Source: an uncultured bacterium (GTDB lineage Bacteria > Zixibacteria > MSB-5A5 > CAIYYT01). Taken from it: DNA of 64,000 bases. Positions 6,811-64,000 of the stretch are shown here, piece by piece. A program made the translations under genes and the position numbers. The stretch is taken from NCBI GenBank assembly GCA_963726455.1, contig CAVSCK010000005.1, forward strand, positions 64,973 through 128,972, given 5' to 3'. The notes under the pieces were generated by a model, which did no database searches, was not told where the DNA came from, and saw only the letters and a program-made list of their open reading frames with translations. Every line of letters starts with the position of its first letter. Positions within the stretch are counted from its first letter, which is position 1.

Positions 6811-7908
6811 TTGCGGGAATCAACGTTGACATTTACACCAAAGACAATTTGCGCAGTGTTCGTGATGTTCACGGGCTTAGCTTTGTCCGGCGCCGGCTGT
6901 GAGGATGCGCCGGTGGCGCGGTTGCAGAACGCCAAGGACGCATTGGCACATGCCGCCGATGCCGGAGCATTACGCTACGCAGAGCCGACATATCGAAATG
7001 CGGAGCAATGTTTGCAGACTGGCTGGATGGAGCTGGCACGCCAGAACGGTCATCTGGCGCCGCTACGCGACTATCAACTTGCCGATTCATTGCTGAAAAT
7101 GGCAACATCGCTGGCATTACAGGCGGAAGACAAGACACGCGACAGCATTTCCACCATGCAGAGTATGTCGGGCAACGAATTAAAGGAAATGAAGACCGAA
7201 CTGGCTGAATGGCTGGACGCCTTGAACGGCTCGCTGGCCGGCTTTAATGTAAAGGATTATTGGCTCCGGGCAGATATGAACATACAGATCGCCGAGGGGC
7301 TGATCAGCAAGGGCGAGTACGAGGAATCGCGCGTAAATATGGCGAAAGCGCGTACCTTCCTGACTCAGCTCGGAAAGGTCCTTGAGGCCCATGCCGATGA
7401 TGAAGCAAAGAAACTGGGAGTATGGCGCCGTTGGGTGCAGCAGACTCTTGACCAGTCGCGATCGGCCAACGGGTACGCAGTTATTGTAGATAAAGCGGCG
7501 CACCGGACTTATCTGGTCAAAGGCGGAAGATTATTACATACATACGGTTGTGAACTGGGGTATAACTCCTCACGCCAGAAGCTGTTTGCCGGCGATGCGG
7601 CAACGCCGGAAGGGATGTACGAAGTGACCTCGGCCCGGCATCGTGGCAGCAAGTATTACAAAGCGCTCCTCTTAAACTTCCCGAACGCGGCAGACAGAAA
7701 ACGGTTTGCGGAGAACAAATCCAAAGGTATAATATCACGGAGAGCGCGTATCGGCGATTGGATTGAAATACACGGCGAGGGCGGAAAGAGCAAAGACTGG
7801 ACTCAGGGGTGCGTCGCCCTTACGAATAAAGATATGGATCACATCATGCAATATGTAACCGTCGGAACGCCGGTTACCATCGTTAGAAAGTCGGATCAGT
7901 GGCCATGA
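6811..7908 (+). CDS. L,D-transpeptidase (YkuD domain) with N-terminal helical domain
   Basis: C-terminal catalytic region HGEGGKSKDWTQGCVALTNKDMDHIM with the His...GC motif; start uncertain (TTG 6811, GTG 6862 or ATG 6865). Confidence 0.85.
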   Translation: MRESTLTFTPKTICAVFVMFTGLALSGAGCEDAPVARLQNAKDALAHAADAGALRYAEPTYRNAEQCLQTGWMELARQNGHLAPLRDYQLADSLLKMATSLALQAEDKTRDSISTMQSMSGNELKEMKTELAEWLDALNGSLAGFNVKDYWLRADMNIQIAEGLISKGEYEESRVNMAKARTFLTQLGKVLEAHADDEAKKLGVWRRWVQQTLDQSRSANGYAVIVDKAAHRTYLVKGGRLLHTYGCELGYNSSRQKLFAGDAATPEGMYEVTSARHRGSKYYKALLLNFPNAADRKRFAENKSKGIISRRARIGDWIEIHGEGGKSKDWTQGCVALTNKDMDHIMQYVTVGTPVTIVRKSDQWP

Positions 7909-8552
7909 AAAAGGTCATCATTTTCACAGTTGCACCGATTGTATTTCTGGTCGGCGTCCTGGTTGTCTTCATGACGCTCACCAAAGAGAAACCGCCCGAG
8001 GGGATCAAGCTGGCAATTGCGGACACACTGGCTACCAACTTGCCCAAAGACGAGAAGGCAGCTCGTACGCAACTGCAGAATGCCGAGAAGGCGCTGGCCA
8101 AGTTGAAACCAGCGAAGCCCTACATCGTGATCGATACTCATGCCAATCGCATTTACTATCGCACGGAAGACTCTATTTATCTGGACGCGGTTTGTTCCAC
8201 GGGTTCCGGCAGCGAGTTGATTGATTCCGTTACCGGCCGCAAATGGATTTTCAATACGCCGCGCGGCGTGTTCAAGATACAGAACAAGATCAAGGATCCC
8301 TGGTGGCGCAAGCCGGACTGGGAATTTATCGAGACCGGTGAACCGATACCTAAGAGCGAATCCGACCGCATGGACGGCAATGTCATGGGCGACTTCGCGA
8401 TGGGTTTTGGTGACGGATTTTTCATTCACGGTACCATTTACGAAAGATTGCTGGGAATCAACGTGACGCACGGCTGCGTACGTCTCGGAACCGACGATCT
8501 CAAGAAGCTGGTGGACATGACGCCCATCGGCACATCGGTGTACATATTTTGA
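7905..8552 (+). CDS. L,D-transpeptidase (YkuD domain)
   Basis: ATG at 7905 overlaps the upstream stop (ATGA); N-terminal TM/signal; catalytic HGTIYERLLGINVTHGCVRL. Confidence 0.9.
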   Translation: MKKVIIFTVAPIVFLVGVLVVFMTLTKEKPPEGIKLAIADTLATNLPKDEKAARTQLQNAEKALAKLKPAKPYIVIDTHANRIYYRTEDSIYLDAVCSTGSGSELIDSVTGRKWIFNTPRGVFKIQNKIKDPWWRKPDWEFIETGEPIPKSESDRMDGNVMGDFAMGFGDGFFIHGTIYERLLGINVTHGCVRLGTDDLKKLVDMTPIGTSVYIF

Positions 8553-9247
8553 TGATGCGGCAAGTTCTGATGACTCTGAGAGGACAAGCGATTTCCGTTA
8601 TTGGGCTACTGGCATGCTCAGTGATGCTGTCATGTTCGGGCGGAACAGATGGAACCGGCACTCCGAAACAAGAGAAGTGGAGCCCTGACCAGGCGAAGCT
8701 CAATTACCAGGTGATGCAGGCCGAGTTGAAACTGGCGCAAACCAACAAGCCCTATCTGGTGCTGGACCTGAAACATGCCCGACTTGAAATCAAGCTGCAG
8801 GGAACCACCGTCTGGAATTATAAGATGACGCTGGAAAATACTGACGGTTCGGAACTGGAGAAATTCAGCGACCGGTTCATGGGCTCGGACGAGAAAGTAG
8901 TCCGGCCGGTATTGTACAAGTATTTGTTCGCGTCATCCAGCCGCACGCCCGACTCGATTCTGGCGATTGTCAGCGAAGCGACAACTTTCCCGCCGGAACT
9001 GTTGCAGCGCACAATCCCCGAGCGCTTTCAATTGAGGTGGAGTGATGATGCCGTGCTCGACATTCGCACTGACGTTGTCGGCAAGCCTGAATCGAAATGG
9101 AAAAATACGATAGTCGATATTCGCCAGGCAATTTCGCGTCCGCTTGGCGAGGCCTTCGTGGTCGTCAGGATGCCGAAGGATAATGCCATCACGCTTTATC
9201 GCGCCGCGACAATCGGCCTGCCAACGCTGATCTATCCCGCGTCCTGA
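8552..9247 (+). CDS. lipoprotein of unknown function (no YkuD catalytic His/Cys)
   Basis: Start overlaps the preceding stop; lipoprotein-type signal ...LLACSVMLSC; no Cys after the signal peptide, so not an active L,D-transpeptidase. Confidence 0.5.
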   Translation: MMRQVLMTLRGQAISVIGLLACSVMLSCSGGTDGTGTPKQEKWSPDQAKLNYQVMQAELKLAQTNKPYLVLDLKHARLEIKLQGTTVWNYKMTLENTDGSELEKFSDRFMGSDEKVVRPVLYKYLFASSSRTPDSILAIVSEATTFPPELLQRTIPERFQLRWSDDAVLDIRTDVVGKPESKWKNTIVDIRQAISRPLGEAFVVVRMPKDNAITLYRAATIGLPTLIYPAS

Positions 9248-9950: not shown

Positions 9951-12872
9951 TCAGGGTTTACAAGGCGCCGGTCCACCGCTGAAGATGTAGGAAATCAGAT
10001 AGACGGCATCTGAGATATCAACCGAATGATCACAGTTGGCGTCACCGGCATCCAGCGGATTCGGCGCCGCGCCACCGGAGAAGATATAGCCGATAAGAAA
10101 GACCGCATCGGAGATGTCGATCCCGCCGCTACCGTCAGCATCACCGGGCACGAACAGCGGTCCTGCCGTGTACAAGTGGGCTGCCGCCCAACGTTTGGCC
10201 TTGACCATGTTACCCTTCAAATCTGCGAGTGTGCCGTCACGCACGGTTGACAGGGCGCTGTAAATGACGATTGTATCCTGTGGCCCGATGTTCCGATTGT
10301 TGATGAAGGTCATGGTGGCAAACTGGTCGGTGGGATTTGTCTCGGGCAAATAACCCGGATTCTGCATCAAGCCGTAAATCTGCACGGCAACGAAGCCGTT
10401 GGTGCCATAGATGTACTGAGAGGAACTGGCCGTAAAGGCACCATAAGGCACTTTGCTAGTGTCAATCACGCCGTCGGCATCGCTAATGCCAAGCAGTGCC
10501 TGTCCCGCAAACCGGCGCGAGCCATCGATACAGTCGAAGCCGCCGCCCTGCTGATATATCATCTTCGTACCGGCATCGAAGCCCCCGACATTTTCCTGAG
10601 GATTGCCGCCGCAGTCCCAGTCGATGGCATCACCGATGCCGATTCCCGTGTGCACGAGGGTATCGAACGAGGTGATTTCGACTCGCTGGATGACGAAGTT
10701 GCAGCTATCGGGATGCTTGGGCGCATACCACGATTTCTTGATTGCAAGGAATTGATCGAGGGTGACGAAAGTGCCGCTCCGGAAGACCTCGTAAGCGCCT
10801 GAATCCGCAGTCGGCGCCATCGGTTCACCGTGGCGAGGCGTGCGGTAGCTATTGCCGTAATACATGTTCCAGTTCGCGGCATACCATGGGCCATTTATGT
10901 AAGTGACCAGCAGCGTGCCGTCCCAAAGATAGTTGTTGACGCAATCGCCCTGACCAAGGTAATCAAGGGCAGCTCCGTACGTGCCTGCCTTGCCGAAATT
11001 GCCCAGATTATTTACGATCAATTTGGTGCAGGATGTGGCGACGGTATCATAGACTTGCACGTTGAAGAGTGCACAGGCGTCGCCAAAGCCATCCCCGTCG
11101 GAATCGGTTTGATCGGGATTGTATACATCGGGACAGTTGTCTATCTGGCACGTTGCTGAAGGATAACCGGGATTACCGAAGCCGTCGGCGTCGGGATCAA
11201 CGCAGTTGTCGCAGGCATCGCCGATGTTGTCATGGTCTATGTCGGCCTGATCAGGATTAGCGTAACCCGGGCAGTTGTCGCAAGCATCACCGGCACCATC
11301 TGCGTCACCGTCGGCCTGGTCGGGATTGGCAACCGCGGGGCAGTTGTCGGTGGCATCGGAAAAGCCATCGCCGTCTTTGTCGAAATCGACGTAGGCGTAC
11401 AGGCGGTCGCCACGGATTGAATCAACTCTGACTGTGATGCCGGTGGGACCATAATAGCCGGCGCTGCTGGGAAATGTAGTCGGACTGAAGGTCGACTGAC
11501 CGGGAACGTTATCGGAGAAGAGCGCGCCTTTGCGGGATTCGTAGGGGTACCACCACTGGGCCGTATCGCTTACGTGTCCACCGGGATTGTTATGATAGTC
11601 ATACGCTGGGTTGTAGCCGGCATCCTCGACCGCGACCGTGTAATGAGGATATGTTGGCGTTCCGTCGTTGATGCGGAAATAATCGGCTTTGAGCGAGTCA
11701 TGGACATGCGTTATTAGCAGCCCGCGATCGAGCGGATCGCAGCCAAGCGACAGGTCGGGATAGAAGTAACAACTGAAATCCGAATCAAACTTGTCGAACT
11801 GTGCCGTCGACTGAGGATTGCGATACTCCAGCATGAAGTATTCCCCCTGCGCCATGTTGATCGGCAGAATGTAATAGGAGCTGTCCTTCGTCGTCTCGCA
11901 GTTGCGAATCATGAGTGATGGATATTCTCGCTGCTCCAACACAGTCGGTGTAATCCAACCGGCCTCTTTCTTGGTCCAGCCGCAGTGATGCGACGGGATG
12001 ATGGACTTGATCGAGAGAATCCCGTAACCGCCATAACCCATTGTGCACCAGTCATAGACCGGATGATCGTTGTCGTCGTTCGGAGTAAAGAAAGTGGAGA
12101 CGGTGAGCTTCTCATCGTAATCGTACAAGTCGGGAACTCCCACGTTGTGTGAGAGCTCATGGCAGAACACTCTGATATAGTTCAAGGTATCAACGCCGGT
12201 AAAGTCGTAGGGGCTGTATGGGTCATGCAAAGGGCAGGTTTCCGGGCAGGTATTCACGCGCGGAAAGCGTTTGCCGTCAAACGGTCCATAGCCGGTACCG
12301 GGTGAGCCGACCTGGGCATATGACCAGATGTCCATCGGATTGTGCGAGTCCTCCTGGCCTCTGCCGGCGTGAATAAATGTGACGGCATCGACATCGCCGT
12401 CGTTGTTGCCGTCAAATTGCGAATAGTCAATTACGGGATTAAGTTCCGCCAAGAGTGAACCAAAGTTGACATAGCCATTGTAGCTGCCTTCGGTGTGCCA
12501 CTCAATCACCTGACCCGTTACAGTCAATTGACCGTATGACGCCTCATGAAAGTAGTCCGCTACGGAACCCATCGGCAACACATTGCGCGAAAAATAGAGC
12601 GTATCGAAGGCGCCGCGAGTCCAGGTGTGGGGGCGGTTGGTCCAGTCGATCAGAATTACGAGTACCTTGAGCGTGTCGCCCGTGAAACGAAATTCGTCCA
12701 TCGACCTTATTTCATCCGGAGTCAGCGTGGACGGGGGCATTTTACCGAATTGCCTCTCCATCACTTCATTGGGTACGTCGAGGATTCGCACCTTCGACAT
12801 GTCGAAGGCGAAGGATGTAGTAGCGACCAATAGACAAGCCAAGGCCACCAGCCCATTAACCATAGATCTCAT
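9951..12872 (-). CDS. secreted M6-family (immune inhibitor A-like) zinc metalloprotease with thrombospondin type-3-like repeats and C-terminal dockerin-like tandem module
   Basis: Signal peptide from ATG 12872 (AGAGGT upstream); HExxH site [19 protein letters not shown]; repeated DxDGDGxxDxxDNCP calcium-binding units; C-terminus [25 protein letters not shown]...[31 protein letters not shown]. Confidence 0.8.
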
Positions 12873-35420: not shown

Positions 35421-35438
35421 TTGCGCCCGGAAAGAAGT

Positions 35439-35945
35439 TTAGACCGTCTCTGTGAACGCCATCTCGTTGAGATCGTTCATAACCCGCGCGACCACGTCGT
35501 TGACCGCACTCACCACCGATTGCGTCAGTCCGTTGCCTGCGGAAAAATCGGCCCCCTCGATACCGTAAACCACCAACCGTTCCGGCAATCGCCCGAGTGC
35601 GCGCGCCAACTCCACGGCCTCAGCGACACTGAAGGCATGCGTGGAGTAATTGAAGAAATCGCTCGGAATTGGAACCCGGGCGGCATCAAATCGATAGATG
35701 AGTCCCGGCGTTGACGACGATTGTGCTGCGTCTATGATGATAACTGTATCTGCTTCGCCAAAACGCTCCAACAGTGACACGCCCTCACCTGAATGGACGA
35801 CGGCGTTTACGCGCGGCAGTGTCAGCGCCGCGATTCGGTTCGCAACCGCAATACCGGCAGCGTCATCGTGTCGGAACTCGTTGCCGACCCCAATTACCAA
35901 AGCAGTGTTGCGCCGGACGGTCGAGTCGTCATCAGTCGCCGCCAT
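35439..35945 (-). CDS. hydrogenase maturation endopeptidase
   Basis: 168 aa; LVIGVGNEFRHDDAAG motif. Confidence 0.8.
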   Translation of the reverse strand: MAATDDDSTVRRNTALVIGVGNEFRHDDAAGIAVANRIAALTLPRVNAVVHSGEGVSLLERFGEADTVIIIDAAQSSSTPGLIYRFDAARVPIPSDFFNYSTHAFSVAEAVELARALGRLPERLVVYGIEGADFSAGNGLTQSVVSAVNDVVARVMNDLNEMAFTETV

Positions 35946-35951
35946 TTTGCA

Positions 35952-37244
35952 TCACCGCCTGTCGATCTTCAGTTTCAGGAAATGTGTCGCGCAGGAAATG
36001 CACGGATCATAGTTGCGCACCGCCTGCTCGCATTGCCAGGTCAGATTCTCGTCCGACAGATGGATATGCCGTGGCACGAATTCCGCCAGATCATTCTCGA
36101 TTGTCTTTTGGTTCTGCGATGTCGGCGGCACGATCTTGGCCTCGGTTATCTTGCCTTTTTCGTCGACACGATACCGATGATAGCAGATACCGCGGGGTGC
36201 TTCCGAGCAGCCGCATCCGACCCCGGCGCGTTTCTTAAATTCGACTGCCGGTTTCTCCGGCTTCTCATAATTTGCGATAATTCGTAATGCCTCATCACAG
36301 GCATAGACCGTCTCAATGCTGCGCACGATTATGCCTTTGAAGGGATTGCGACAGCTATTGCCCAGGCCGACCTCTCTGGCGACCTGCTGCGGCACCGGCG
36401 ACAGTCGGTCGAAATTGAGATTGAAGCGCGCCAACGGCCCCACGAAGTAAGCGCCACGCGCTCTGATTACGGAGTGTAGAGCGTGAGAATGCTTGACGTG
36501 CTCCTCCGCAAAATGCTGCTCGTACTCCTTGATCTCGATATCCAGCCCGCGATTCGACACCAGTCGTCCTTCGATGAGTGGATACTCATCCGGATGCCGC
36601 ATGGCGACGAATTCGTAGTCACGCTCAAAATCCGGAAACTTGAAGGTCGCCACCCATTTTGACGTTTCGATTGCGGCATCGCGAGCCCATTTGAGTTCCT
36701 CCGCGATCGAAGCCAATTGCGACTTTTCCGGCGCCTTGTAGAATCCGCCGACGCGCACGTTGATCGGATGAATTTCGCGTCCGCCAATCAGCGTCATAAG
36801 ATCATTCCCGCATTTCTTGAGGCGCAGACCCCGCTTGACGATGTCGGGATAATCCTTCGCCAGTTGAATGGCGTCGGGATAGCCAAGGAAATCAGGCGCG
36901 TGCAGCATGTAGATATGCAGCGCGTGGCTTTCGATCCACTCGCCGCAGTATATTAGGCGCCGCAGCGCGCGTAGTTGTCCATCGACCGTGACACCGAATA
37001 TCTGTTCCATCGCGCTCACCGCGCTCATTTGATAGGCAATCGGGCAGATTCCGCAGATGCGTGCGGCAATGTCGGGCGCTTCGGCATAATGACGGCCACG
37101 CATAAATGCCTCGAAGAAACGCGGCGGTTCGAAAATCTTCAGTTTCACGTCTTCCACGCGGTCGTCTTTGATCTTCACATAGAGCGATCCTTCGCCTTCG
37201 ACTCGCGCCAGATAATCGACCTTGATCGTTCTGCTATCTTTCAT
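35952..37244 (-). CDS. hydA: [NiFe]-hydrogenase large (alpha) subunit, group 3b-like
   Basis: N-terminal RICGICP and C-terminal DPCISCATH nickel-binding motifs; 430 aa. Confidence 0.93.
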
Positions 37245-38013: not shown

Positions 38014-38014
38014 A

Positions 38015-39329: not shown

Positions 39330-39330
39330 C

Positions 39331-40530: not shown

Positions 40531-40735
40531 TGATTTCCCCCGCAGCGTTCATCAATTCTGAATTCAGCCGACTAATGATAACGACTGGACTTCCTAATAT
40601 CACTGAATTGCAGACAGCGATCATCAACTATTCACCACTTGTCCGATCCGCGCCGTTCCTGCCAACCATTCTGGCCGGCAGGCGGATCGTCGCGAATCAC
40701 TTTTCCGCATTGAAAATAGCTTAGTTTGGGCCAAA

Positions 40736-40954: not shown

Positions 40955-40998
40955 AGAAATCTAATCTACGCACCACCAAGCGCTTCGTTAAGCCGTCG

Positions 40999-42733: not shown

Positions 42734-43723
42734 ATGAGAAGAGCTGTATTGATCGCGCTTGCCATCGTTTCGTTGTCGTTCATCTCATTTCTGACATCGC
42801 CGCAACCCGCCACTGCCGCCGCGATTGTCGCCGATCACACGACGGTCGCGAAGTTCGCGCAGATTCCGCAGGAATATTTCGACCAGATTCGCGCCAATTA
42901 CCGGTTCTTCTATGGCCACACATCTCACGGCAGCCAGATATTGACCGGAATCGGCATGTTGGCGTACGAGTATCCGCTGCAATGCGGCTCGCCGTCATTC
43001 TTCGAGTACGGCGACGATCTTGGCGCCGCCGGAGACATTACCTGGGTGCAGCCGACGCGCGATTTTCTCAATTCCAACCCGGATTACAATGTCGTGATGT
43101 GGTCATGGTGCGGCGGCGTATCCGACAATACTGAGGCCGGTATTAACAGTTATCTCAACGCGATGGAGCAACTCGAAAACGAATTTCCGAATGTCCGATT
43201 CGTATACATGACCGGCCATCTCGACGGCACCGGCGCCGCAGGAAACCTGTATGCGCGGAACAATCAGATTCGCCAGTGGTGTGCCGCAAACGGGAAAGTG
43301 CTTTTCGATTTTGCCGACATCGAGAGCTACGATCCGGATGGCGCGTATTACCCCGACGGCAGCGACGCCTGCGAATGGTGCTATACTTGGTGCGCTACCC
43401 ACACCTGCACTGACTGCGGAGGAAGTTGCGCGCATTCGCATTGTTTCAATTGCTATCAGAAGGCCAAGGCGTGGTGGTGGATTATGGCGCGTGTCGCCGG
43501 CTGGAACACGGATCCGGTTGGCTGCGGAGACGCCAACTCGGACGGTGGCATTGATATCAGTGACGCGGTATTCCTGATTGCCTACATCTTTTCAGGCGGC
43601 CCGGCGCCAAATCCGCTCAATTATGGCGATGCCAACTGCGACGCAGCCATTGACATCTCCGACGCGGTCTACCTGATAAGCTACATCTTCGCCGGCGGCC
43701 CTGCCCCTTGTGCAAGTTGCTAG
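42734..43723 (+). CDS. secreted protein with Cys-rich N-terminal domain of unknown function and C-terminal dockerin-like tandem module
   Basis: Signal peptide; Cys-rich stretch CEWCYTWCATHTCTDCGGSCAHSHCFNCY; C-terminus [27 protein letters not shown]...[32 protein letters not shown]. Confidence 0.6.
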   Translation: MRRAVLIALAIVSLSFISFLTSPQPATAAAIVADHTTVAKFAQIPQEYFDQIRANYRFFYGHTSHGSQILTGIGMLAYEYPLQCGSPSFFEYGDDLGAAGDITWVQPTRDFLNSNPDYNVVMWSWCGGVSDNTEAGINSYLNAMEQLENEFPNVRFVYMTGHLDGTGAAGNLYARNNQIRQWCAANGKVLFDFADIESYDPDGAYYPDGSDACEWCYTWCATHTCTDCGGSCAHSHCFNCYQKAKAWWWIMARVAGWNTDPVGCGDANSDGGIDISDAVFLIAYIFSGGPAPNPLNYGDANCDAAIDISDAVYLISYIFAGGPAPCASC

Positions 43724-44251: not shown

Positions 44252-44294
44252 ACAACACCTCCGACCAATGACGGTCGCCTATTTGATGATGCTA

Positions 44295-46026: not shown

Positions 46027-47856
46027 TTACACCGGCGGGCAGGCAGCGCATGGCACCGGTCCCCCGCCAAATATGTATTGAATAAGGTACACCGCGTCCG
46101 CGATGTCGATCGACTTGTCACAGTTGGGATCCCCGGCTGTGGCTGTGACCGGCGCCGGTCCCCCCGCAAAAATGTAATTTATGAGGTAGACCACGTCGGC
46201 GATATCGACTCCACCGTCACCGTTGGCGTCGCCGCAAGTGAATTCAACCAGAGTAGTCCCCCACCAAGTGCCCCAGCGCGTGTCAGCAGGGTTCGGTCCA
46301 ACCGGTGTCGCCGCATATTCCTGAATCGTCCAGAAGCTGGTGCTATCCTTGGGGTCTACGACTGTGGCACTAAAATCCCCCCAGCGAACCTCAGTTCCGC
46401 CGAAGGTCTTGGTATAGATGCCCTCGCCGGCCTTGATCGTTGCCACGGTGCTCGTCGTCCCGATTGGATCGGTTGACCTGCGGCCGGTGTAAGCCGCTTC
46501 GACAAAGATGTTGGGATTCGAATGCGAGAACCCGAGAAAGACATCATTCCCGGAATTGACTGCAATACTGGGAAAGAACAGAAAGTCATTCGTGCCCATA
46601 TCAACCACGCCCGATTGCACAATCGGATTCGGTAGCGTCGCCGGATCGAGTTCATACCAGAAGACGGAAACGTGGTTGGGAGAATTCACCGGCAGGCCTG
46701 CACTGTGCGTGCACCAAATCCTGCCGTTACGGAAGACGGCATTGAGCATACGCGAATCGTTGGTTGACACCAGTGTGGCTGTGCCCTGTTGCTTGGCGTC
46801 TGGCTGATTATTCGAGAAATTATGTGCTACCGAGAATAACCCCGAGCCGCCAATCGTCGAACCAGGCACAGCGGCCCAAACCGGCGCCGGTCCCGTACCG
46901 GTGATTTGTGTCAATCTGAGGAGAGCTACTCCTCCCGAGGTGAATCCGGCATTATCGACCAGATATAGTGTCGGCTCATTACCGAATGTCTGACAGACGC
47001 GAAGCGCGAAACCTGAACCGACATTGCCGAAATTGTCTGATCCCACCGGAAAACTCGTGAAGGTCAACGGTCCCCCGGCAAGCGCCGTCGATTTTTCAAT
47101 TACCCACATCGACGTTCCGGAGAAAGTATTCCCCGTCACTTTGAACATGTTGGCCGTAATGGCAATCCAGGTTCCATTATACCCGATGTCCGGATAATCA
47201 GCCCAGCTAATGTGCGAGGTGTCCGCAGGTATGCGGTAGAATTTCCAGGTCCCCATCGGATTGGCGCTGTCGCTGACCGCCATCACCACAGCGGAATTCA
47301 CGGTTTGGAAGTCCGCGATGGACGACGCATACCAACGGTTGACGCTCGGGTCGTACAGAACGTGGGGATCACTAACATTGGTCGAACCCGTTGGCGACCA
47401 GAATGTCGGATAGGAGATTGTACTCAGGATATTCCCAAACTTGTCCTGCACCCTGATTTGTGAATTCAGCATCGTCATCACCCGGTTCAGACTTACGGCG
47501 CCGTGCGAATCCGGAGGGATCACGTGAAGGTTATCGGGCAAGGCCTGGAAATTTCTGACTACCGGCGGCACCTGCATCGGCGAAAGAAATTGCTCTGTCC
47601 CCAGACTCCCTGCACTACCCAACTTACCCAGTGGCCCACCAACCTCTCTCGGCGCCGGCATCAGCAATAGCGGTTTTACTTCCTGCACCTCCGCGGTCTT
47701 TGCCAGCGGTGCCCTCGCCTCCATGTTCTCCAAGTCCTGCCAGCTCACCTGAGCTACCGGATCAATCTGCATTTGTTGTCCGGAGACGCCAAAACTTGCC
47801 GCAGTCAGCAACAGTATTAGAACGAGCGTCGCCCGCGACGTTTGCCATATCGACAT
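46027..47856 (-). CDS. secreted protein of unknown function (paralog of 48164-50620) with C-terminal dockerin-like tandem module
   Basis: ATG 47856 with AAGGAG upstream; signal peptide; ~500-aa N-terminal domain shared with the next gene (...RWGDFSATVVDP...WGTWWGTT); C-terminus CGDANGDGGVDIADVVYLINYIFAGG...[32 protein letters not shown]. Confidence 0.6.
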   Translation of the reverse strand: MSIWQTSRATLVLILLLTAASFGVSGQQMQIDPVAQVSWQDLENMEARAPLAKTAEVQEVKPLLLMPAPREVGGPLGKLGSAGSLGTEQFLSPMQVPPVVRNFQALPDNLHVIPPDSHGAVSLNRVMTMLNSQIRVQDKFGNILSTISYPTFWSPTGSTNVSDPHVLYDPSVNRWYASSIADFQTVNSAVVMAVSDSANPMGTWKFYRIPADTSHISWADYPDIGYNGTWIAITANMFKVTGNTFSGTSMWVIEKSTALAGGPLTFTSFPVGSDNFGNVGSGFALRVCQTFGNEPTLYLVDNAGFTSGGVALLRLTQITGTGPAPVWAAVPGSTIGGSGLFSVAHNFSNNQPDAKQQGTATLVSTNDSRMLNAVFRNGRIWCTHSAGLPVNSPNHVSVFWYELDPATLPNPIVQSGVVDMGTNDFLFFPSIAVNSGNDVFLGFSHSNPNIFVEAAYTGRRSTDPIGTTSTVATIKAGEGIYTKTFGGTEVRWGDFSATVVDPKDSTSFWTIQEYAATPVGPNPADTRWGTWWGTTLVEFTCGDANGDGGVDIADVVYLINYIFAGGPAPVTATAGDPNCDKSIDIADAVYLIQYIFGGGPVPCAACPPV

Positions 47857-48086
47857 AAGCTTGTCTCCTTTCATCCCTTTGGACACTTCTCTTGTTATAA
47901 AGAAACCGATTCGCTCCCTCACAGTTCCCTGTGATCGGTTGTCATGAGTCTTTCTGGCTCTACGATTAAGGTACGCGGCACCCTGCCCCATTTGTGGCGT
48001 CTAATTGACCTCCATAAACACAAGTTCCTGGCGGAGTAAGCGGGCTGATTTCTGGGGGCAAGAGGCGATTCTTAAGGGTCTGCGCT

Positions 48087-48163: not shown

Positions 48164-49020
48164 TCAACAGCCGGCACACGGAGCCGGACCGCCGGAGAAG
48201 ATGTACGCGATCAAGTAGACGGCGTCCGAGATGTCAATTGAATGATCACAGTTGGCATCTCCCGCCTCCACCGGATTTGGTGCCGGACCGCCAGAGAAAA
48301 TGTAGGCGATCAAATAGACAGCATCCGAAATGTCAACGCTGCCACTGCGATCGGCATCACCGCAAACGTAAGGCGGATCGACGACTCTAAGGTTGACCGC
48401 TACTGTGTCTGTCAACGCCGGAGCGCTGCCGTCCTGCAAAGCGATCGAGAAATAGAAGGTAGATTTATAGGTTGGAGTACCTGTGATCGTCCCGACCAGG
48501 CCATCATTAAACGTGAGGCCGTACGGCAAGTCTCCACCGACGAATGACCAGGTGTAGGGTGGAATGCCGCCCGAGTGCAGGAACTGGAATTCGTATGGCT
48601 TGTGATAATAGGCATCGGGCAGAGCTGGGTTCACATGCAGCAGTGGCTCGATGTGCAGGAATCCGTCGCATGCGTCGCCGACGCCGTCCGTATCCGAATC
48701 CCATTGATCATTGTTGCTCACCAGAGGACAATTGTCGCAGGCATCACCAAACAAGTCACCATCAGCGTTCACTTGCGACAAATTGGGCGTATATGGGCAA
48801 TTGTCGACTGCATTCAGAATGCCATCATTATCAATATCGGGATCGCAAACATCACCCAGACCGTCACCGTCAGTATCCTTTTGATTCGCGTTGGCCACTG
48901 TCGGACAGTTGTCGCAGACATCACCGATGCCGTCGTGGTCGGTGTCAAGCTGATTGGCATTTGCCGTCATCGGGCAGTTGTCCACGGTGTCTGCAACTCC
49001 GTCTCGATCCATATCTACCA
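48164..49020. repeat. copy A of a ~850-bp near-identical 3' coding module (TSP3 + Ig-like + dockerin-like)
   Basis: Long runs nearly identical to 51059-51920 when aligned by eye; encoded peptides differ only at scattered positions. Confidence 0.8.
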
Positions 49021-50620
49021 TAGTCGTTCCCCACCACGTGCCCCAACGGCTGTCATCGACGCCCGGACCGACTTTCATCCCCGCATATTCCTGAATGGTC
49101 CAGAAGCTCAGACTATCCATCGGATCTACCACGGTAGCGCTGTAGTCTCCCCAGCGCACGCGTGTGCCACCGAAATTCTTGGTGTAGGTCGACTCACCTA
49201 ATTTGAGCACCTTAATCGGCGCCATGGTGCCCAGCGGGTCGGATGCCTGGCGGCTGGTGTATGCCGCCTGCGCGTAGATCGTCGGATTGGAACGCGAAAA
49301 CCCAATCATCGCATCATCATTGGCATTGGCATTTATGCTCGGGTAGAACAGATATGTATTCGCGCCCTCATCCAGTACGCCCGATTGCACGATCGGATTC
49401 GGCATTGCCGTCGGGTCGAGTTGATACCAGAATACGGCATCGCGATTGGCTGAAGATACCGGCAAACCTGCGGCATGCGTGCACCAAATCTTGCCGTTGC
49501 GGAAGACTGCATTAATGATTCGCGAATCATTGGTTGTGATCTTGGTCGTGGTACCAAGCTGGGACGCATTGAGCATTGAGCCGTTGAAATTATTGGCAAC
49601 CGCGAACAGCCCGGATTCGGCAATAGTGGATCCCGCTGTCGCGTTCCAGACCGGCGCCGGTCCGGTGCCGGTTATCTCAGTTATGCGCAGTTGATGGATA
49701 CTGGAGATCGTGATATTGTTATTGTCAACCACATACAACTTCGGCTCTGAACCGTAGGTCTGACATACGCGCAGAGTCCAACCGTTGAATCCACCGAAGA
49801 TTCCTGATCCCACCGGAAAATAAGTGACTGTCAGTGGGCCGCCCGAAAGCGCTGTGGATTTGTCGACCACCCACATCGCTGGTCCCGCCTGAGATCCGCC
49901 GGCAACCGGAAACATATTTGCAGTCAGCGCGATCCAGGTGTCGTTATAGCCAATGTCCGGATAGTCCGCCCAGTTGATGTTGCTCATGTCTGCCTTGATC
50001 GTGAAGTACTTCCAGACGCCCATTGGATTACCATTGTCCGTCACCGCCAACAGCACTTCTGAACTCGCCGACTCGTAATTGGCGATGGAGGTGGCGTAAA
50101 ACCGCCCTGTGCCCGGATCGAACAGTACGCGCGGATCGCTTAGCGTTGAGGCCCCGACCGGCGCCCAGAATGCTCCGTACGAAATCGTCGAGAGAACCGT
50201 GCCCATGCGATTTTGCACCCGCACTTCGGAATTCAGGAATGTCATGATGTATGAAACACCGACGCCGCCGTCGGTATCGGGAGGAATAACAGCGCCGTTA
50301 TCCGGAATCGCCTGGAAACTTCTCACCACCGTGGGCGCTTGCACATTCTGGCTTACACCTGCGACACTAAGCGCATCCAGAATGTTGTTTTGACCGGTCG
50401 GTTTTGCTATCTCTGTTTCTGCAGGCATCAGCATCAGCGGCGGCACTCTGTGAACCTGCTTTTGCGCCGGCGTCATATTCTGGTCTATGGCCATCAGGTC
50501 ATTCCAGCTCACCGATGCAGCAGGTGACAGAGTCACTCTCTGACCGGTCACAGCCAATAGTGATGTGATTGAGGTCAACGAAAGAAACAGAAATACAACG
50601 AACATTCGCTTTGCACTCAT
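48164..50620 (-). CDS. secreted protein: unknown N-terminal domain (paralog of 46027-47856), thrombospondin type-3-like repeats, Ig-like domain, dockerin-like tandem module
   Basis: Signal peptide [23 protein letters not shown]; TSP3-like DxDxDGxGDxCDNCP units; Ig-like region [21 protein letters not shown]; C-terminus ...[32 protein letters not shown]. Confidence 0.65.
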
Positions 50621-51058: not shown

Positions 51059-51920
51059 TCAGCACCCCGCACATGGCGCCGCGCCACCACTGAAGATGTA
51101 TTGGATCAAGTACACCGCATCCGAGATGTCGGCTGTATGATCGCAGTTGGCGTCTCCCGCCTCTGCCGGGTTGGGCGCCGGACCACCGGCGAAGATGTAA
51201 GCTATCAAATAGACAGCGTCCGAGATGTCGACGCTGCCGCTGTGGTCGGCATCCCCGCAAACGTAAGGCGGATCGACGACTGAAAGAGTGAGTGAGACCG
51301 TGTCTGTCAACGCCGGGACGCTGCCGTCCTGCAGAGCAATCGAGAAATAGAAAGTAGATTTATAGGTCGGTGTACCGGTGATCGTACCGGTCAAACCATC
51401 ATTAAACGTGAGGCCGTATGGCAAATCCCCGCCTACAAAAGTCCAGTTATATGGGGGCGTGCCGCCGGCGTGCAGAAACTGGTAGGTATATGGCTTGTGG
51501 TAGTAGGCATTGGATAATATAGGATGCAGGTTCAGTTCGGGCTCGATGTGTACTGAGTCGTCGCACCAGTCGCCGAGTCCGTCCGCATTTGAGTCCCACT
51601 GATCGTTGTTCGCCAAAAGCGGGCAATTATCGCAGGCGTCGCCGAGGCTATCGGCATCGCTGTTCTCCTGACCCGGATTGACGGCGTACTTGCAATTGTC
51701 GGCGGCGTTAGGCAATCCGTCGTTGTCAATATCGGGATCGCATGCATCGCCCAGGCCGTCGCCGTCGACGTCGTTCTGAGTCGCATTGACCACAGTCGGG
51801 CAGTTGTCACAGGCATCGCCGATACCGTCATTATCGGTATCGAGCTGGTTGCTGTTGGCCAGACTCGGGCAATTGTCAACCGTATCAATAACCCCGTCGG
51901 CATCGAAATCGCCCACAACG
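51059..51920. repeat. copy B of the ~850-bp near-identical 3' coding module
   Basis: See copy A at 48164-49020. Confidence 0.8.
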
Positions 51921-53452
51921 CCGACCTTCAAATTGGCAATCATTGTTGAGGCGCATGACGACGAGAGGACTTTAACTTCCACCAAAGTTGGCGAACCGGT
52001 GTAGGAATTGCTGTTCGGAGCACTGGCCCCGTTAAATGTCTTGTTAATCCATAGATCGCCGGCTTGCGTGGGCGGATTGTTGTCCGCACACTCGATATCG
52101 ACCCAGCGGTGAGTATCGTTCGAGTTATTGTTCTGGGTGTCATCGATATGCCAGATCGCGATTCCGCATCCGGGAAGGTAGGCATCAAAGCCAACTTGTT
52201 GCCGATTCTCTACGAGAAAGTATTGAGTACTGGGCAATACGCTGCTTCTGAGCTTAAAGCATGACTGATTGGTTTCCGCTTGATCGAGATGAACGCCGTA
52301 GGCATTGACTGACGGCTGAGTCACCGGAAGCCAACCTTTCCGGATCTTACACCAGGCACTCATGTGCGCCGGAGATGCACCGTTCTGGCCCGGACCATTC
52401 CAACTTCCTCCCGCCATCAAACACCAGTTGCCGATTCCATCGCTGCTGTAATCAGTGTCATAAAGATCGGGAAGTCCGATGGCATGCCCGTATTCGTGCG
52501 CGAAGACGCCGATCGTTGAACGTACGCCCGACCAGACCATTTCCGGTTCCATGGTGTAACCACTGACCGTCTTGCCGCTCGCCGAGATGGAGGGGGAAAG
52601 ATGACCGGAATGTGACCAGGGATAATTGGTATAACCAGCTTCGGCGCCCGGCCCGACGTGTACGATAAACAGACCGTCTACGATGCCGTCATTGTTGTTA
52701 TCGAATGGCGCAAAATCGACTCCCGCGTCGCGGGCTGCGGTCACGGCCTCGGCGGCCAATATGGCGGCCCGCCCCATCCCGGAGGCATAGCCATAGTAGT
52801 TTCGATTCTGGCTCGCGGTGTAAAATCCTACGACCGTGCCCGTCACCGTGAAGGCATCGTATGATGTCTCCAGATAGAATTTGTGCAAGGAACCCAAATC
52901 GAAATTCGCGCCGTTGAATAACGAGTCGAAATCGCTTGGCGGGTAAGTATTGCCTTCATCCGGATACTTGATGAGAATCACCAGCACGTTGTTTGTCGTC
53001 GTTCTGGTCGCGCGCTGAGTCAGAGTCGGATCATCCGGGAACGAATAAAAGGACGGATCAGGTCTTCCGACCGTACTGGTGGCTGCCAGACTAAGCGGCA
53101 TCTGGGCCAAAAAACTTCTCTCGGCGCCGGATCGCCTGTCCGCCGCGGTGGCTCTGAAATTCGATGCCTTGAGGTTTCCGTCTGCATCCAGAACGGCATA
53201 GCAATACCAGCCGTCAGTATCCCGGGCGACAGTGTATCCGTCCTCGGTAATCATACGTCCGTTTCTTTCATCACCAATGACCCTAAGAGTGAGCTTTGAT
53301 ACTCCGTCCGGCTGGGTCACTTCAAACGCCCGATCGGGATTTGCCGGGACAGACAGCGCAGGTTGAGCAATCAAGACCACGCAAAAGGCCATCATCGTCA
53401 GCAAGTGCCCGAGCATCGGCCAGGCGTGAGCAATAGCGCTTCTCTGCTTCAT
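51059..53452 (-). CDS. secreted M6-family zinc metalloprotease with TSP3-like repeats, Ig-like domain and dockerin-like tandem module
   Basis: Signal peptide; HExxH site [19 protein letters not shown]; C-terminal ~280 aa almost identical to those of 48164-50620; ends ...[32 protein letters not shown]. Confidence 0.8.
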
Positions 53453-53810: not shown

Positions 53811-56800
53811 CTAACACCCTGCACACGGCGCCGGTCCACCGGCGAAGATGTACTGTATCAGATAGACCACGTCTGAGATGTCCACCGCCTGATCGCAATT
53901 GGCATCACCGGCCGCAATCGGATTCGGCGCTTGCCCGCCGGCGAAAATATACTGAATGAGAAAGACAGCATCCGAGATATCAATTGCCCCGTCACCGTTG
54001 GCATCACCGCAAAGGTAAGTCGGCACAGTTTCGTAGATGGTCAGGAACGTATCAGCAGGAATCGACGTAAATACCCGAACGGTATCAGAAGGCCAGCGAG
54101 CAATCAGAGAGTCGATCATCGTGTTCGACCCCAGTCCGAATGCGGCTATCGGCGGGCTCTGATTCCATCCCCCGGAAACCGTCGTGATTTCGCGAATCTG
54201 CTGCTTGCCTCCAGCAACGATGCGGACTCGCGCTCCGATGCTATTCTTGTTGGATGTCGTGCCGACAAGTTTCGCCTGCAGCCAATGATTATTGTCGCCA
54301 ATCTCGTTTCGAAGGAGCCGACTGCGGCAATTGTATCCGTACATATTCGACAGGTAAATGTCCAGATCGCCGTCGCGATCATAATCGGCCCAGACGCCAC
54401 CCCGACCGGTGCAACCCAAATCGGTAAGAGGATTGATCAGGTTTCCGGTATAGGCCACGGCAAAGTTACCGCTCCCGTCGTTGCGGAAGAGCTTGTTGGC
54501 TTCATTGGAACCGTTCGTTACGAAAAGATCCAAATCACCATCATTGTCGTAATCGCCCCACGCACAGCCCTGCGTGTAATCCCAAGCAGTCATCACGGCG
54601 GGCGTCACGTCCGTGAAGACTCCGTTCCCATCGTTACGAAACAACTTGTCGCTCAGCCCCGACCAGTAGACGGCAACAAACAGGTCGAGATCTCCGTCGT
54701 TGTCATAGTCGCCCCAATCCGCTGCGAAACTATGGGAGGCAATCGCCAGAGCTGGAGGTGTGACGTCGGTAAAGGAGCCGCCGTCATTGCGCAACAGTCT
54801 GTTCGGACCGTTGAAGTTTACGATGAATACGTCGGGGTCATTGTCGTTATCATAGTCGGCCCAAGTCGACATATGAGTACTAAACGTATCTCCCAGGGGG
54901 CCGCTAGTAGCGTCAACGAATGTTCCAGCGCCGTCGTTACGAAACAGCTTATTCGCTGAAGTCAGTTGCGATAGATACAGATCGAGGTCACCGTCCGTGT
55001 CGTAGTCGACCCAGGCGGCACCACTGCCATTGTTAGCATCATTTAGAGGCGCGCTGGAAACATCTGTAAAGGCGCCTCCGCCATCGTTGCGATAAAGCTT
55101 GTTAGCTCGGCTATCGTTGCGGGAGACATAGATGTCGACATCTCCGTCGTTGTCGTAGTCGCCCCAGACTCCGACTATTCCAGTCGCCGCAGCGCCCATG
55201 CTATTTGGAGTAACCTCCACGAAAGAGCCGGCATCATTCCTGAACAGATGGCTGGAGTCCGGGTCGTACATCTGCGTCAGTAGAAGATCGAAATCGTTAT
55301 CATTATCGTAATCCGCCCATGCTGCCGACGAGATTGAGCCGTATCGTGACAAAACTCTGGGAGTGACGTCGTTCCATTCTGGCGGTGCTGAAATGAATGG
55401 AAACGCGGCCAGCAAATTCGGTCTGCCGCCGATGTTCCCAGCCGGAGGCGTGACTTGTGCCGTAGCGGTATTTTTGAGAACCGTGCGCAGAATCGCTGGA
55501 GTGAGGGTCCCGCCCAGTCCGCCGACTCCCTTCCAGCGGCCCACACAGCACGCCACTGCGCCGGCAACAATTGGAGATGCGCTTGACGTGCCCGCGAAGA
55601 CGCTGGTGTATGCGTAATCAGTGCCATCGGCATTGTACAGATCTCCATAACCCGTGGTCACGACGTTCTCGCCCCAACCTTGAAGATCATAGCGAGTGCC
55701 GTAGCTGGCAAACGACAGTCGCTGCAGGTCGCCTTCCACATACGTGCCACCCGGATAAACACCACTTGCTCCGACAACAATTGCTCCCGATCCATTTGGA
55801 TGCCAGTTGAGCATGTCAGTATCATAGGCGCCATTTCCGCCGGCTTCGACCACATGAATCCCGTTTGTTACCGCGTTTACAATGGCGGTGAAGACGGGAT
55901 TCCATGACTGATTGTTCACGTCGCCCCACCATTCTATGGGGATATAAGACCCTCCGCCGTAGTCCCATTGCTGTTCGAGCAGGATAATATCGCCGGCATT
56001 CAGGCTGGCAGTCGCCAGCGCAATGGCGCCAGCAACATTCCAGCTCGGCGTGGGACTTCCATAGTAAGTGCCGCATGTCTTGAGATTCGCACCGTAGCAG
56101 ATTCCGGTAGTGCCCCAGCCGTTATTGTCCGCGACCATAACTCCGATGACGGCAGTCCCATGATCGTCGTCGCTGAAAGGATCGACGACATTGCTGTTTA
56201 TCTGCGACCCCACTACCTTACTGATGTCTGCATGATTGTAGTTCCAGCTATATTCCAGGTCACAGACCGTGACCCCGGAACCGTTACCCCCTGTTTGCGT
56301 CCACGCGTATTGCGCATCAATCCCCACCGGAGCTGAACTCGCCGGACGCATGTATCGCTGGCCGGTGTCATAAGGGGGCGGTATCATCGGCAGCATCATT
56401 GGTTTGGGAACCGGACGCGCCCACATGATTTCGGGTAGAAACTCGAGATCGCGGCAGAGCCCCCAAAGATCATGGCCTTTGCCAAGGCGTAATCGGTAGA
56501 TGTTGTTGAGATTGTACACCGGCTGTCCCGAGTTCTGCTCGCCTACGGCTTGCATCTCATCGAGCTTCTCCTCCGAAACATTGCACGTGCGCTGCCATTC
56601 GACCGGCCCCACCGCGGCAAGCGTGCTCAACACGGAACTCAGGGACCTACCAGTAATATCCACCGGCACTCCCAGTCGTAATCTTACAGTCAGGTATGGC
56701 TCGAAGATCACCTCGATAAGGTCATCTTCATGTCCATATTCTCCGACGGCCTGCCTGCTCACCGACTGCGGCCCGACCGCCAGTGCCTCCGGATCCACGG

Positions 56801-56909
56801 CGATACTATTTCCGAAAGTCGGGGTGATAATCACGAGCCCTACCAGGAACGCCGCCACCAGTGAGCAGACGTGCGGAACTGTTGACCTGCAATTCACAAT
56901 AACCTCCAT
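53811..56909 (-). CDS. secreted S8 subtilisin-like serine protease with FG-GAP/VCBS repeats, ASPIC/UnbV-like domain and dockerin-like tandem module
   Basis: Signal peptide from ATG 56909 (alternative start 57035); S8 triad regions (VTVCDLEYSW, DDDHGTAVIG, GTSSASPIVAG); multiple WGDYDNDGDLDLFV repeats; C-terminus [26 protein letters not shown]...[32 protein letters not shown]. Confidence 0.85.
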   Translation of the reverse strand: MEVIVNCRSTVPHVCSLVAAFLVGLVIITPTFGNSIAVDPEALAVGPQSVSRQAVGEYGHEDDLIEVIFEPYLTVRLRLGVPVDITGRSLSSVLSTLAAVGPVEWQRTCNVSEEKLDEMQAVGEQNSGQPVYNLNNIYRLRLGKGHDLWGLCRDLEFLPEIMWARPVPKPMMLPMIPPPYDTGQRYMRPASSAPVGIDAQYAWTQTGGNGSGVTVCDLEYSWNYNHADISKVVGSQINSNVVDPFSDDDHGTAVIGVMVADNNGWGTTGICYGANLKTCGTYYGSPTPSWNVAGAIALATASLNAGDIILLEQQWDYGGGSYIPIEWWGDVNNQSWNPVFTAIVNAVTNGIHVVEAGGNGAYDTDMLNWHPNGSGAIVVGASGVYPGGTYVEGDLQRLSFASYGTRYDLQGWGENVVTTGYGDLYNADGTDYAYTSVFAGTSSASPIVAGAVACCVGRWKGVGGLGGTLTPAILRTVLKNTATAQVTPPAGNIGGRPNLLAAFPFISAPPEWNDVTPRVLSRYGSISSAAWADYDNDNDFDLLLTQMYDPDSSHLFRNDAGSFVEVTPNSMGAAATGIVGVWGDYDNDGDVDIYVSRNDSRANKLYRNDGGGAFTDVSSAPLNDANNGSGAAWVDYDTDGDLDLYLSQLTSANKLFRNDGAGTFVDATSGPLGDTFSTHMSTWADYDNDNDPDVFIVNFNGPNRLLRNDGGSFTDVTPPALAIASHSFAADWGDYDNDGDLDLFVAVYWSGLSDKLFRNDGNGVFTDVTPAVMTAWDYTQGCAWGDYDNDGDLDLFVTNGSNEANKLFRNDGSGNFAVAYTGNLINPLTDLGCTGRGGVWADYDRDGDLDIYLSNMYGYNCRSRLLRNEIGDNNHWLQAKLVGTTSNKNSIGARVRIVAGGKQQIREITTVSGGWNQSPPIAAFGLGSNTMIDSLIARWPSDTVRVFTSIPADTFLTIYETVPTYLCGDANGDGAIDISDAVFLIQYIFAGGQAPNPIAAGDANCDQAVDISDVVYLIQYIFAGGPAPCAGC

Positions 56910-57113
56910 GCAAATAGACAGTATCACGGTCAATCCGTCCGGCAGACGGCTCGATCGCGTGCCCCTGTAGTAGTTGTTGTCAGCAGAGATGTCGTTGTCT
57001 ATGTTAAAGATACTGCCCTTACGGAGAAATGTCAATTGGAAAAGTGGAGTCGCGGGTACTGATTGCCGGTTCTTCTAACCGTTGATTGGGCATTCGGTTG
57101 CGCTCATAGGCAC

Positions 57114-63518: not shown

Positions 63519-64000
63519 TCAGCAACCCGCGCATGGCGCCGGACCGCCGGAGAAAATGTACGATATCAGATAAACAGCATCGGAAATATCAATCGAGCCG
63601 TCGCAGTTCACCTCTCCAGTGCTATATGGCGAAGGCGCCGGGCCGCCGGAGAAGATATAGGCGATCAAATAGACGGCGTCGGAAATATCAACCCCGCCAT
63701 CTCCGTTAGCGTCGCCGCAGACTGCGGGACTGCCGACGGTGACGCACGCACCCTGAAACGCCCCCTGATAAGTAAATAAACCGTGCGTGAGCGACTGCGT
63801 GAAGCTGGAATAAACCGTGTCGCGAATGCAGATTTTCTGGTTTTTCAACGCATTAGTAACCTGGAATCTGACTTTGCAAATCACGCCGCTGCCTGCCGCC
63901 AGAGGCGCGTGTCCCCCGCCCATGTTCGCTCTCAGGTCAAGGGTGGCTACCTTGCCGCCGTTGTAGATGTTGCTGAAGATCGCCTGCTCAAAGCCGGCGC
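63519..64000 (-). CDS. C-terminal part of a protein with cohesin-like segment followed by dockerin-like tandem module (5' end beyond window)
   Basis: Frame stays open to the window end (...FEQAIFSNIYNGGKVATLDLRANMGGGHAPLAAGSGVICKVRFQVTNALKNQKICIRDTV...); ends [26 protein letters not shown]...[32 protein letters not shown]. Confidence 0.5.
   Translation of the reverse strand, partial: AGFEQAIFSNIYNGGKVATLDLRANMGGGHAPLAAGSGVICKVRFQVTNALKNQKICIRDTVYSSFTQSLTHGLFTYQGAFQGACVTVGSPAVCGDANGDGGVDISDAVYLIAYIFSGGPAPSPYSTGEVNCDGSIDISDAVYLISYIFSGGPAPCAGC

Follow-up and report, generated by a model that had tools for sequence, protein, structure and literature searches.

Among the closest described systems is the proposed cellulosome-like complex of "Candidatus Stygibacter" (Cloacimonadota). 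It has dockerin-tagged S8, C25, GH18, and GH57 enzymes and a 3,755-amino-acid (aa) scaffoldin with tandem cohesins, carbohydrate-binding modules, and a type IX secretion system (T9SS) C-terminal domain (CTD) (PMC8542988). Its authors propose degradation of polypeptides and polysaccharides at the cell surface (PMC8542988). The M6 peptidases are grouped with M7 in MEROPS subclan MA(M), and their motif HExxHxxGxxD provides His/His/Asp zinc ligands and the catalytic Glu (PMC3890501). We analyzed 64,000 nucleotides of an uncultured bacterium of the Zixibacteria (GTDB MSB-5A5; CAIYYT01), positions 64,973 to 128,972 of contig CAVSCK010000005.1 (assembly GCA_963726455.1), which we call the window. Zixibacteria are widespread uncultured bacteria of sediments and aquifers and are thought to join in detrital protein turnover. 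The window encodes two proteins, protein 1 and protein 2 (Table 1), that very probably are secreted and active M6-type peptidases. Both end in a tail that very likely has a true dockerin fold. The same tail ends many other proteins of this and related genomes.

Catalytic domains

Protein 1 contains 973 aa plus a stop codon, with an ATG at 12872. Protein 2 contains 797 aa plus a stop codon. Exact copies of both lie on one public contig of 667,840 bp (P0121 for protein 1 and P0001 for protein 2). Their named relatives are Zixibacteria or GN15. An ortholog of protein 1 (P0191) is encoded in the complete Zixibacteria genome GCA_900498245.1 (LS998015.1). The signal peptides of both were judged by inspection alone. 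Hydrophobic N-terminal leaders occur in nearly all of the full-length protein 1 homologs listed.

An earlier note on this DNA had read an M6 active site in both open reading frames (ORFs). Classification with hidden Markov models (HMMs) bore this out. Both translations contain HExxHxxGxxD, and the active-site regions match an M6 profile. The NCBIfam M6 domain (TIGR03296, cutoff 110.8 bits) scores 117.1 bits with protein 1, over aa 72 to 357 (11802-12659), and 207.8 bits with protein 2.

By sequence, protein 2 is a clear M6 member. It matches Pfam Peptidase_M6 (PF05547) at 83.5 bits, above threshold, and the solved InhA structure 4yu5 with an E value of 1.5e-14 (phmmer). HE[YF]GHxxGLPD is near-invariant in its homologs, and the zinc motif is kept in about 118 of 120. 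An invariant Met lies downstream of the motif (Met346).

Protein 1 appears to be a divergent M6-like peptidase that is probably active and not an inactivated derivative. Its family aligns with the protein 2 family in hhalign with a probability of 100% (E = 8.7e-58) over 363 columns, the entire catalytic domain. HExxHxxGxxD is kept in all 120 retrieved relatives, and this family also has an invariant downstream Met (Met278). Met278 and Met346 are candidates for the Met-turn of subclan MA(M). The divergent M6-like subfamily occurs across Zixibacteria. For annotation, it exemplifies M6-like enzymes that Pfam misses and NCBIfam barely catches.

Several results weigh against the M6 assignment of protein 1. 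It falls under the Pfam M6 threshold (16.6 versus 22 bits). Direct sequence searches linking it to InhA gave no match. A profile of 14 family members found no InhA in the PDB and touched only snapalysin (M7), at the zinc motif. The AlphaFold model of the catalytic core is poor, with a predicted local distance difference test (pLDDT) score of 53.9. In favor of M6, Foldseek with this model nevertheless returned InhA2 (4yu5/4yu6, four chains) as the only PDB matches at a probability of >0.9; this fold-level test is no more than suggestive because the core model is poor.

Dockerin tail

Seven window ORFs end in the same tail of 67 to 71 residues. The tails are 80% identical per column despite unrelated cargo, and Pfam Dockerin_1 (PF00404) is above its cutoff in all seven. 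A type I dockerin has two tandem segments of about 22 residues, in each of which a helix follows an EF-hand-like Ca2+ loop. The tails have this organization: their alignment contains duplicated segments starting GDA[DN]xxxx[VI], which form two Ca-loop/helix units. A profile of the tail matched more than 20 solved type I dockerins in the PDB (best E = 3.7e-6) and covered both units. The conserved residues extend beyond the Ca-binding loops and include the helix faces.

The tails contain exactly two or four cysteines in 224 of 251 unique sequences. Tails that have the first Cys tend to have a second terminal Cys as well, and tails without the one tend to lack the other (146/1 versus 8/46; Fisher P = 8e-36, not corrected for phylogeny). 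The tail of protein 1 lacks both. This covariation implies two disulfide staples, and a tail would be stapled by one or two disulfides.

Spread and cargo of the tail

A scan of one genome per species gave at least 518 confirmed tail copies, many per genome. They came from metagenome-assembled genomes (MAGs) labeled Zixibacteria, "Ignavibacteria," and Calditrichaeota. We also sampled related material in 79 loci, about 1.25 Mb from roughly 10 genomes and a few per cent of each genome. In these loci, the tail lies within 12 residues of the C terminus in 148 of 154 tail ORFs, with up to 7 tail ORFs per 20 kb. One related MAG has up to 26 in just ten sampled loci. Homologs in related genomes were checked for the tail and keep it at the C terminus, and the combination of M6 domain, thrombospondin type 3 (TSP3) repeats, and dockerin recurs in many of them.

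The cargo was surveyed in 65 tail-bearing proteins, which matched 44 Pfam families. The 25 most frequent families include TSP_3 (19), SBBP propellers (10), FG-GAP, beta-helix, LVIVD, and Laminin_G_3. The peptidase cargo includes S8, C25, M4, M1, and M12B-like domains. The tag is not protease specific, because beta-propellers, lectin-like domains, beta-helices, and other cargo carry it too. Each genome thus has tens of secreted proteins, including many peptidases, that carry the dockerin as a genome-wide tag.

The C terminus is alternately this tail or a T9SS sorting domain among M6 homologs and among SBBP/DUF7948, C25, and S8 cargo. Proteins 1 and 2 have no match to the T9SS CTD (Por_Secre_tail) in Pfam or NCBIfam. 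Two other window proteins, at 3265-5451 (+) and 62341-63381 (-), end in T9SS sorting domains (Por_Secre_tail/FlgD_ig/CHU_C). Two kinds of C-terminal tag are thus in use in the one genome. Since the window encodes T9SS-sorted proteins, the host is a diderm of the Fibrobacteres-Chlorobi-Bacteroidetes (FCB) group.

Automatic annotation in public pipelines already gives homologs of the two proteases the labels "M6 family metalloprotease domain-containing," "dockerin type I domain-containing," or "thrombospondin type 3 repeat-containing," which makes the two proteases as such ordinary. Moderate interest attaches only to the wider pattern, in which a protease-rich secretome carries a Cys-stapled dockerin and no cohesin is visible.

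Several tail-rich MAGs are labeled "uncultured Ignavibacteria." One locus labeled "Nanoarchaeota archaeon" (L073; JBBSXA010000011.1) has the tail at 74% identity. The "Nanoarchaeota" and "Ignavibacteria" labels may reflect binning or taxonomy errors.

Thrombospondin repeats and middle domains

The earlier note had placed TSP3 repeats before a dockerin-like end. Both modules are there, with Pfam TSP_3 (PF02412) above its gathering threshold and Dockerin_1 above its cutoff in both proteins. They do not abut: a domain of about 300 aa lies between them in protein 1, and He_PIG lies between them in protein 2. The repeats of protein 1 (aa 496 to 600) match COMP (3fby) with an E value of 5e-35, and those of protein 2 match thrombospondin-2 (2rhp) with an E value of 1.3e-65 (phmmer).

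The middle region of protein 1 gave no Pfam family. AlphaFold2 models residues ~606 to 900 as a beta-supersandwich with a pLDDT of 93.7. In Foldseek, it resembles the N-terminal beta-sandwich domains of GH94, GH65, GH116, and GH63 enzymes and the YidC periplasmic domain, with an E value of about 2e-7 and a template modeling score of about 0.5. It is confined to long members of the protein 1 subfamily (~900 to 1,000 aa) and is absent from short ones (~570 to 750 aa). A glycan-binding or targeting role is probable from the modeled fold. This insert was also considered as a cohesin; the likeness to N-terminal domains of glycoside hydrolases and phosphorylases ruled that out.

Protein 2 shares its C-terminal 283-aa cassette of TSP3, He_PIG, and dockerin with the neighboring protein at 48164-50620. 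The cassettes are 78% identical, and the N-terminal ~510 to 530 aa are unrelated, which shows cassette shuffling. The N-terminal domain of the neighbor matched no Pfam family.

Proposed docking and its alternatives

Ca2+-dependent docking of the protease-rich secretome on a common surface receptor is the best explanation overall, and we hold it with slightly better than even confidence. The proteins would be exported by Sec through the signal peptides seen by inspection. The Cys-rich TSP3 and dockerin modules would fold oxidatively, and the products would pass the outer membrane by some route. The Ca2+-loaded TSP3 repeats would form a rigid spacer. The module that follows them would serve in targeting; in protein 1 this is the beta-supersandwich, which probably binds glycans, and in protein 2 it is the Ig-like He_PIG domain. 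The C-terminal dockerin would dock onto the common receptor, as its conservation across paralogs suggests. At the zinc site, two His and one Asp would bind zinc, and Glu would act as the general base, with the conserved Met downstream; with this motif the M6 domain would cleave extracellular protein. Docking would hold the hydrolases at the cell surface to scavenge detrital protein, comparable to the cohesin/T9SS-anchored system of "Ca. Stygibacter." This role fits the report that Zixibacteria contribute exported peptidase ORFs in sediments (PMC6365825).

As in cellulosomes, multiple enzymes (S8, C25, M4, M1, and M6 peptidases) carry species-uniform dockerins. Within one genome, tails that are ~80% identical on unrelated cargo point to a single specific macromolecular partner. 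We give even chances to the claim that the tail docks to a shared protein partner.

The results of the partner search weigh against docking. No cohesin was found among 21 secreted or unknown window ORFs scanned, among the 25 most frequent of the 44 Pfam families of the 65 tail-bearing proteins (about half of the tail-bearing set), or among 25 of the 26 families matched by 17 T9SS-tagged proteins from related genomes. A small cohesin HMM, which detects the FCB-type cohesins of L107 as a control, gave no cohesin when 1.31 Mb was scanned in six frames. Homolog neighborhoods on long contigs contained housekeeping genes, with no conserved partner and no cohesin. All-versus-all clustering of the ORFs in the 79 loci gave no untagged scaffoldin-like giant protein, and a literature search on Zixibacteria with dockerin or cohesin found no report. 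Since the sample covers just a few percent of any one genome, this does not prove that a cohesin is lacking. It also counts against docking that a folded, disulfide-bonded protein would have to cross the outer membrane.

The sole candidate receptor found was a lipoprotein family from three genomes (L013:2302-3831(-), L024:2221-3771(-), and L051:2062-3624(-)). Its members are ~515 aa long, have the lipobox GCS, and lie ~3 kb from a tail gene. Two of them have sub-threshold Pfam Cohesin matches in the same region, at E = 0.012 (profile positions 14 to 126 of 139) and E = 0.073. A profile search of the PDB found a CarboxypepD_reg domain only, hhalign against cohesin seeds gave a probability of 12.7%, and a metagenome scan showed no conservation of the putative cohesin region in other sequences. 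The family failed these profile tests and is an unconfirmed lead; this too counts against docking. A cohesin was also considered for the stretch before the tail in the ORF at 63519-63998, which has no Pfam or BLAST support as such. This stretch consists of Ig-like repeats, and the ORF has its best relative in an S8/PKD/dockerin protease (P0242).

The earlier note had suggested that the two proteases belong to an organized extracellular protein-degradation apparatus. Its observation and its domain interpretation were correct, well above chance. The apparatus interpretation is plausible but unproven. It stays plausible because of the published Cloacimonadota precedent (PMC8542988), and T9SS-anchored cohesin proteins also occur in other FCB-type organisms (P0080 and L107, described below). 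It is unproven because neither the window nor the 1.25 Mb of related loci yielded a cohesin, and functional inference needs a cohesin-bearing partner; in addition, the tag is shared with cargo other than proteases.

Free release of the enzymes is possible but rather unlikely. The dockerin and TSP3 repeats would then be orphan Ca2+-binding modules that stabilize the proteins or bind a noncohesin ligand (envelope or substrate glycans or mineral-bound organic matter), with no scaffolded complex. The lack of a cohesin in any sampled sequence is consistent with this, as are the many nonenzyme cargoes, such as beta-propellers and lectin-like domains, and the presence in protein 1 of a domain that probably binds glycans by itself. 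Peer et al. (2009; cited in PMC8542988) reportedly described dockerin-like modules in genomes that encode no cohesin. Generic stabilization fits poorly with tails that are so alike on unrelated cargo of one genome, which point instead to one specific partner. The conservation of the helix faces, and not just of the Ca-binding loops, argues the same way. The sampled sequence also leaves room for a scaffoldin elsewhere in the genome.

It is improbable that the main function of the tail is C-terminal sorting, for outer membrane translocation or surface attachment, parallel to the T9SS CTD and with a secretion or attachment machine and not a scaffoldin as its reader. Its strictly C-terminal position (148 of 154), its alternation with the T9SS CTD on homologous M6 proteases and on SBBP/DUF7948, C25, and S8 cargo, and the presence of both tag types in the window would suit such a signal. 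However, profile and solved structures identify the tail as a bona fide dockerin, and this fold is known to dock proteins to one another, not to secrete them. The sampled neighborhoods linked no dedicated machinery to the tail genes. Two proteins of other T9SS-bearing organisms also bear on this point. P0080 (L082:9565-12750) contains an M6 protease domain, a dockerin, a cohesin (49 bits), and a T9SS CTD. The 2,992-aa protein at L107:3283-12258 contains two cohesins (50.4 bits), a dockerin, and a T9SS CTD. Because an internal dockerin and a T9SS CTD occur in the same protein, the two signals are not equivalent. Both proteins look like surface-anchored docking platforms.

That protein 1 is an M6-derived binding or adhesion protein without protease activity, like the T9SS-dependent M6-like inactivated family, is very improbable: the sub-threshold Pfam score, the family profile without an InhA match, the large insertions after the zinc motif (hhalign against the protein 2 family), and a weak match to NF052323 ("T9SS-dependent M6-like inactivated metalloprotease") point that way, but that match is 21 bits against a cutoff of 600, TIGR03296 exceeds its own cutoff, and the complete motif with its catalytic Glu and the downstream Met is invariant in protein 1 and its relatives.

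Docking on a common receptor can be put in a more specific form, which we regard as doubtful. In Zixibacteria-like bacteria, a type I dockerin with disulfide staples would serve the whole lineage as a C-terminal tag that gathers M6, S8, C25, M4, and M1 peptidases and binding proteins on the surface. The receptor would be missed by current cohesin profiles; a lipoprotein with a divergent cohesin-like region, for example of the L013/L024/L051 family, could fill this role. If true, a diderm would have its own equivalent of the cellulosome, one that degrades protein and not cellulose, alongside T9SS sorting. If one docking tail is shared by dozens of secreted hydrolases, this would suggest that a diderm that is not among the classical cellulosome producers digests extracellular material with enzymes retained at its surface. 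The shared tail defines a concrete search for the missing receptor.

Other genes in the window

Five tail genes lie within 14 kb (42734-57035), at 42734-43723 (+), 46027-47991 (-), 48164-50620 (-), 51059-53452 (-), and 53811-57035 (-). A major facilitator superfamily transporter (44295-45503) is the sole interruption of this group, and its relatives lie near tail genes at 6 other loci. The first protein of the group has syntenic relatives at other loci.

Just downstream of the tail-gene cluster is a sigma-70 family factor (57171-58025). It adjoins an HtrA/DegP-like protease (Trypsin_2 and PDZ) at 58113-59637 (-), which is apparently split into the overlapping ORFs 59116-59637 and 58113-59174. 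The split could be a frameshift or a mischosen start.

The window also encodes a [NiFe]-hydrogenase cluster in 33093-42546. It contains the large subunit (35952-37244), the small subunit (37234-38043), the maturation factor HypF (33093-35420), an Fe-S protein (39331-40530), and a multiheme NapC/NirT-type cytochrome (40999-42546). A PMT_2/TMEM260-like protein O-mannosyltransferase homolog is encoded at 17219-19222 (-), which hints that envelope or secreted proteins are glycosylated. Tandem YkuD L,D-transpeptidase genes lie at 6811-7908 and 7899-8552 (+), followed by a lipoprotein-like ORF at 8549-9247 with no Pfam family.

Table 1. Coordinates of the two proteases, their modules, and the other tail-bearing ORFs in the window
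Feature	Position	Strand	Basis
Protein 1: predicted divergent M6-like metalloprotease, TSP3 repeats, beta-supersandwich, dockerin tail	9951..12872	-	ORF list
Protein 1, predicted signal peptide, cleavage before FD	12807..12872	-	By eye from sequence
Protein 1, conserved catalytic core, aa 23-495	11388..12806	-	TIGR03296, hhalign, Foldseek
Protein 1, zinc site HExxHxxGxxD	12129..12161	-	Translation
Protein 1, TSP3 calcium-binding repeats, about 4	11073..11387	-	Pfam TSP_3; phmmer; motif positions
Protein 1, predicted beta-supersandwich domain, no Pfam family	10173..11057	-	AlphaFold2; Foldseek
Protein 1, type I dockerin tail, two Ca-loop/helix segments, 2 Cys	9954..10154	-	Pfam Dockerin_1, 25.5 bits vs 22.9; translation
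Protein 2: predicted M6 metalloprotease, TSP3 repeats, He_PIG, dockerin tail	51059..53452	-	ORF list
Protein 2, predicted signal peptide (…VLIAQPALS/VPANPD, cleavage at the slash)	53351..53452	-	By eye from sequence
Protein 2, M6 catalytic domain, aa 158-435	52148..52981	-	TIGR03296, Pfam PF05547, phmmer
Protein 2, zinc site HExxHxxGxxD	52466..52498	-	Translation
Protein 2, TSP3 repeats, about 4-5	51551..51916	-	Pfam TSP_3, 63.9 bits; phmmer
Protein 2, He_PIG Ig-like domain	51281..51514	-	Pfam PF05345, 30.7 bits vs 24
Protein 2, type I dockerin tail, 4 Cys, end …PCAGC	51062..51265	-	Pfam Dockerin_1; translation; tail alignment
Tail-bearing neighbor: S8 subtilase, FG-GAP/ASPIC repeats, dockerin	53811..57035	-	Pfam
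Tail-bearing neighbor: N-terminal 530 aa without known family, then TSP3/He_PIG/dockerin cassette as in protein 2	48164..50620	-	Pfam
Tail-bearing protein, 585-aa cargo without assigned family	46027..47991	-	Pfam Dockerin_1 only
Tail-bearing protein, 329 aa, cargo without assigned family	42734..43723	+	Pfam Dockerin_1
Tail-bearing ORF truncated by window end, probably S8/PKD/Ig-like/dockerin protease	63519..63998	-	Pfam Dockerin_1; S8, PKD, and dockerin domains in best relative, P0242

Comparison with known systems

InhA1 and InhA2 (Bacillus thuringiensis/anthracis; M6; 4yu5/4yu6). Like these, the window proteins have a secreted zinc endopeptidase domain with HExxHxxGxxD. They differ in coming from a diderm of an uncultured phylum and in carrying C-terminal TSP3 repeats, He_PIG or a beta-supersandwich, and a dockerin instead of the domains of InhA. 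Protein 1 is so divergent that only profile-profile comparison ties it to M6. Nothing points to a virulence role for the window proteins.

"Ca. Stygibacter." Both hosts belong to the FCB group, and both encode enzymes with signal peptides and C-terminal dockerins, including S8 and C25 peptidases. The scaffoldin is known in "Ca. Stygibacter," whereas the sampled Zixibacteria-like sequence yielded neither a cohesin nor a scaffoldin. PMC8542988 describes no M6 cargo, no TSP3 spacers, and no Cys-stapled tail.

Clostridial and ruminococcal type I dockerins (4dh2, 3ul4, 1daq, and 5m2s). These share with the tail two tandem Ca-loop/helix segments, the C-terminal position, and high similarity among the paralogs of a genome, and the tail profile matches them. 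Cellulosomes reportedly also include dockerin-bearing peptidases. The window differs in its Gram-negative-type host and in its cargo of mainly peptidases, propellers, and lectins, not glycoside hydrolases. The 2 or 4 covarying cysteines of its tails, which imply disulfide staples, are atypical of clostridial dockerins.

Thrombospondin/COMP and Myxococcus MtsC (NF047638). The repeats share the pattern DxDxDGxxDxxDNCPxxxNxxQxDxD and paired cysteines. Unlike thrombospondin and COMP, the window proteins have only about four repeats, as an internal module of a hydrolase. NF047638 scores 88 to 137 bits with the window proteins, far under its equivalog cutoff of 350, and they are therefore not MtsC orthologs.

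T9SS-sorted M6 proteases of FCB bacteria. Their catalytic domains are homologous to those of the window proteins, and many protein 2 homologs end in Por_Secre_tail or FlgD_ig. The window proteins differ in ending in a dockerin, and the two tags alternate among homologs.

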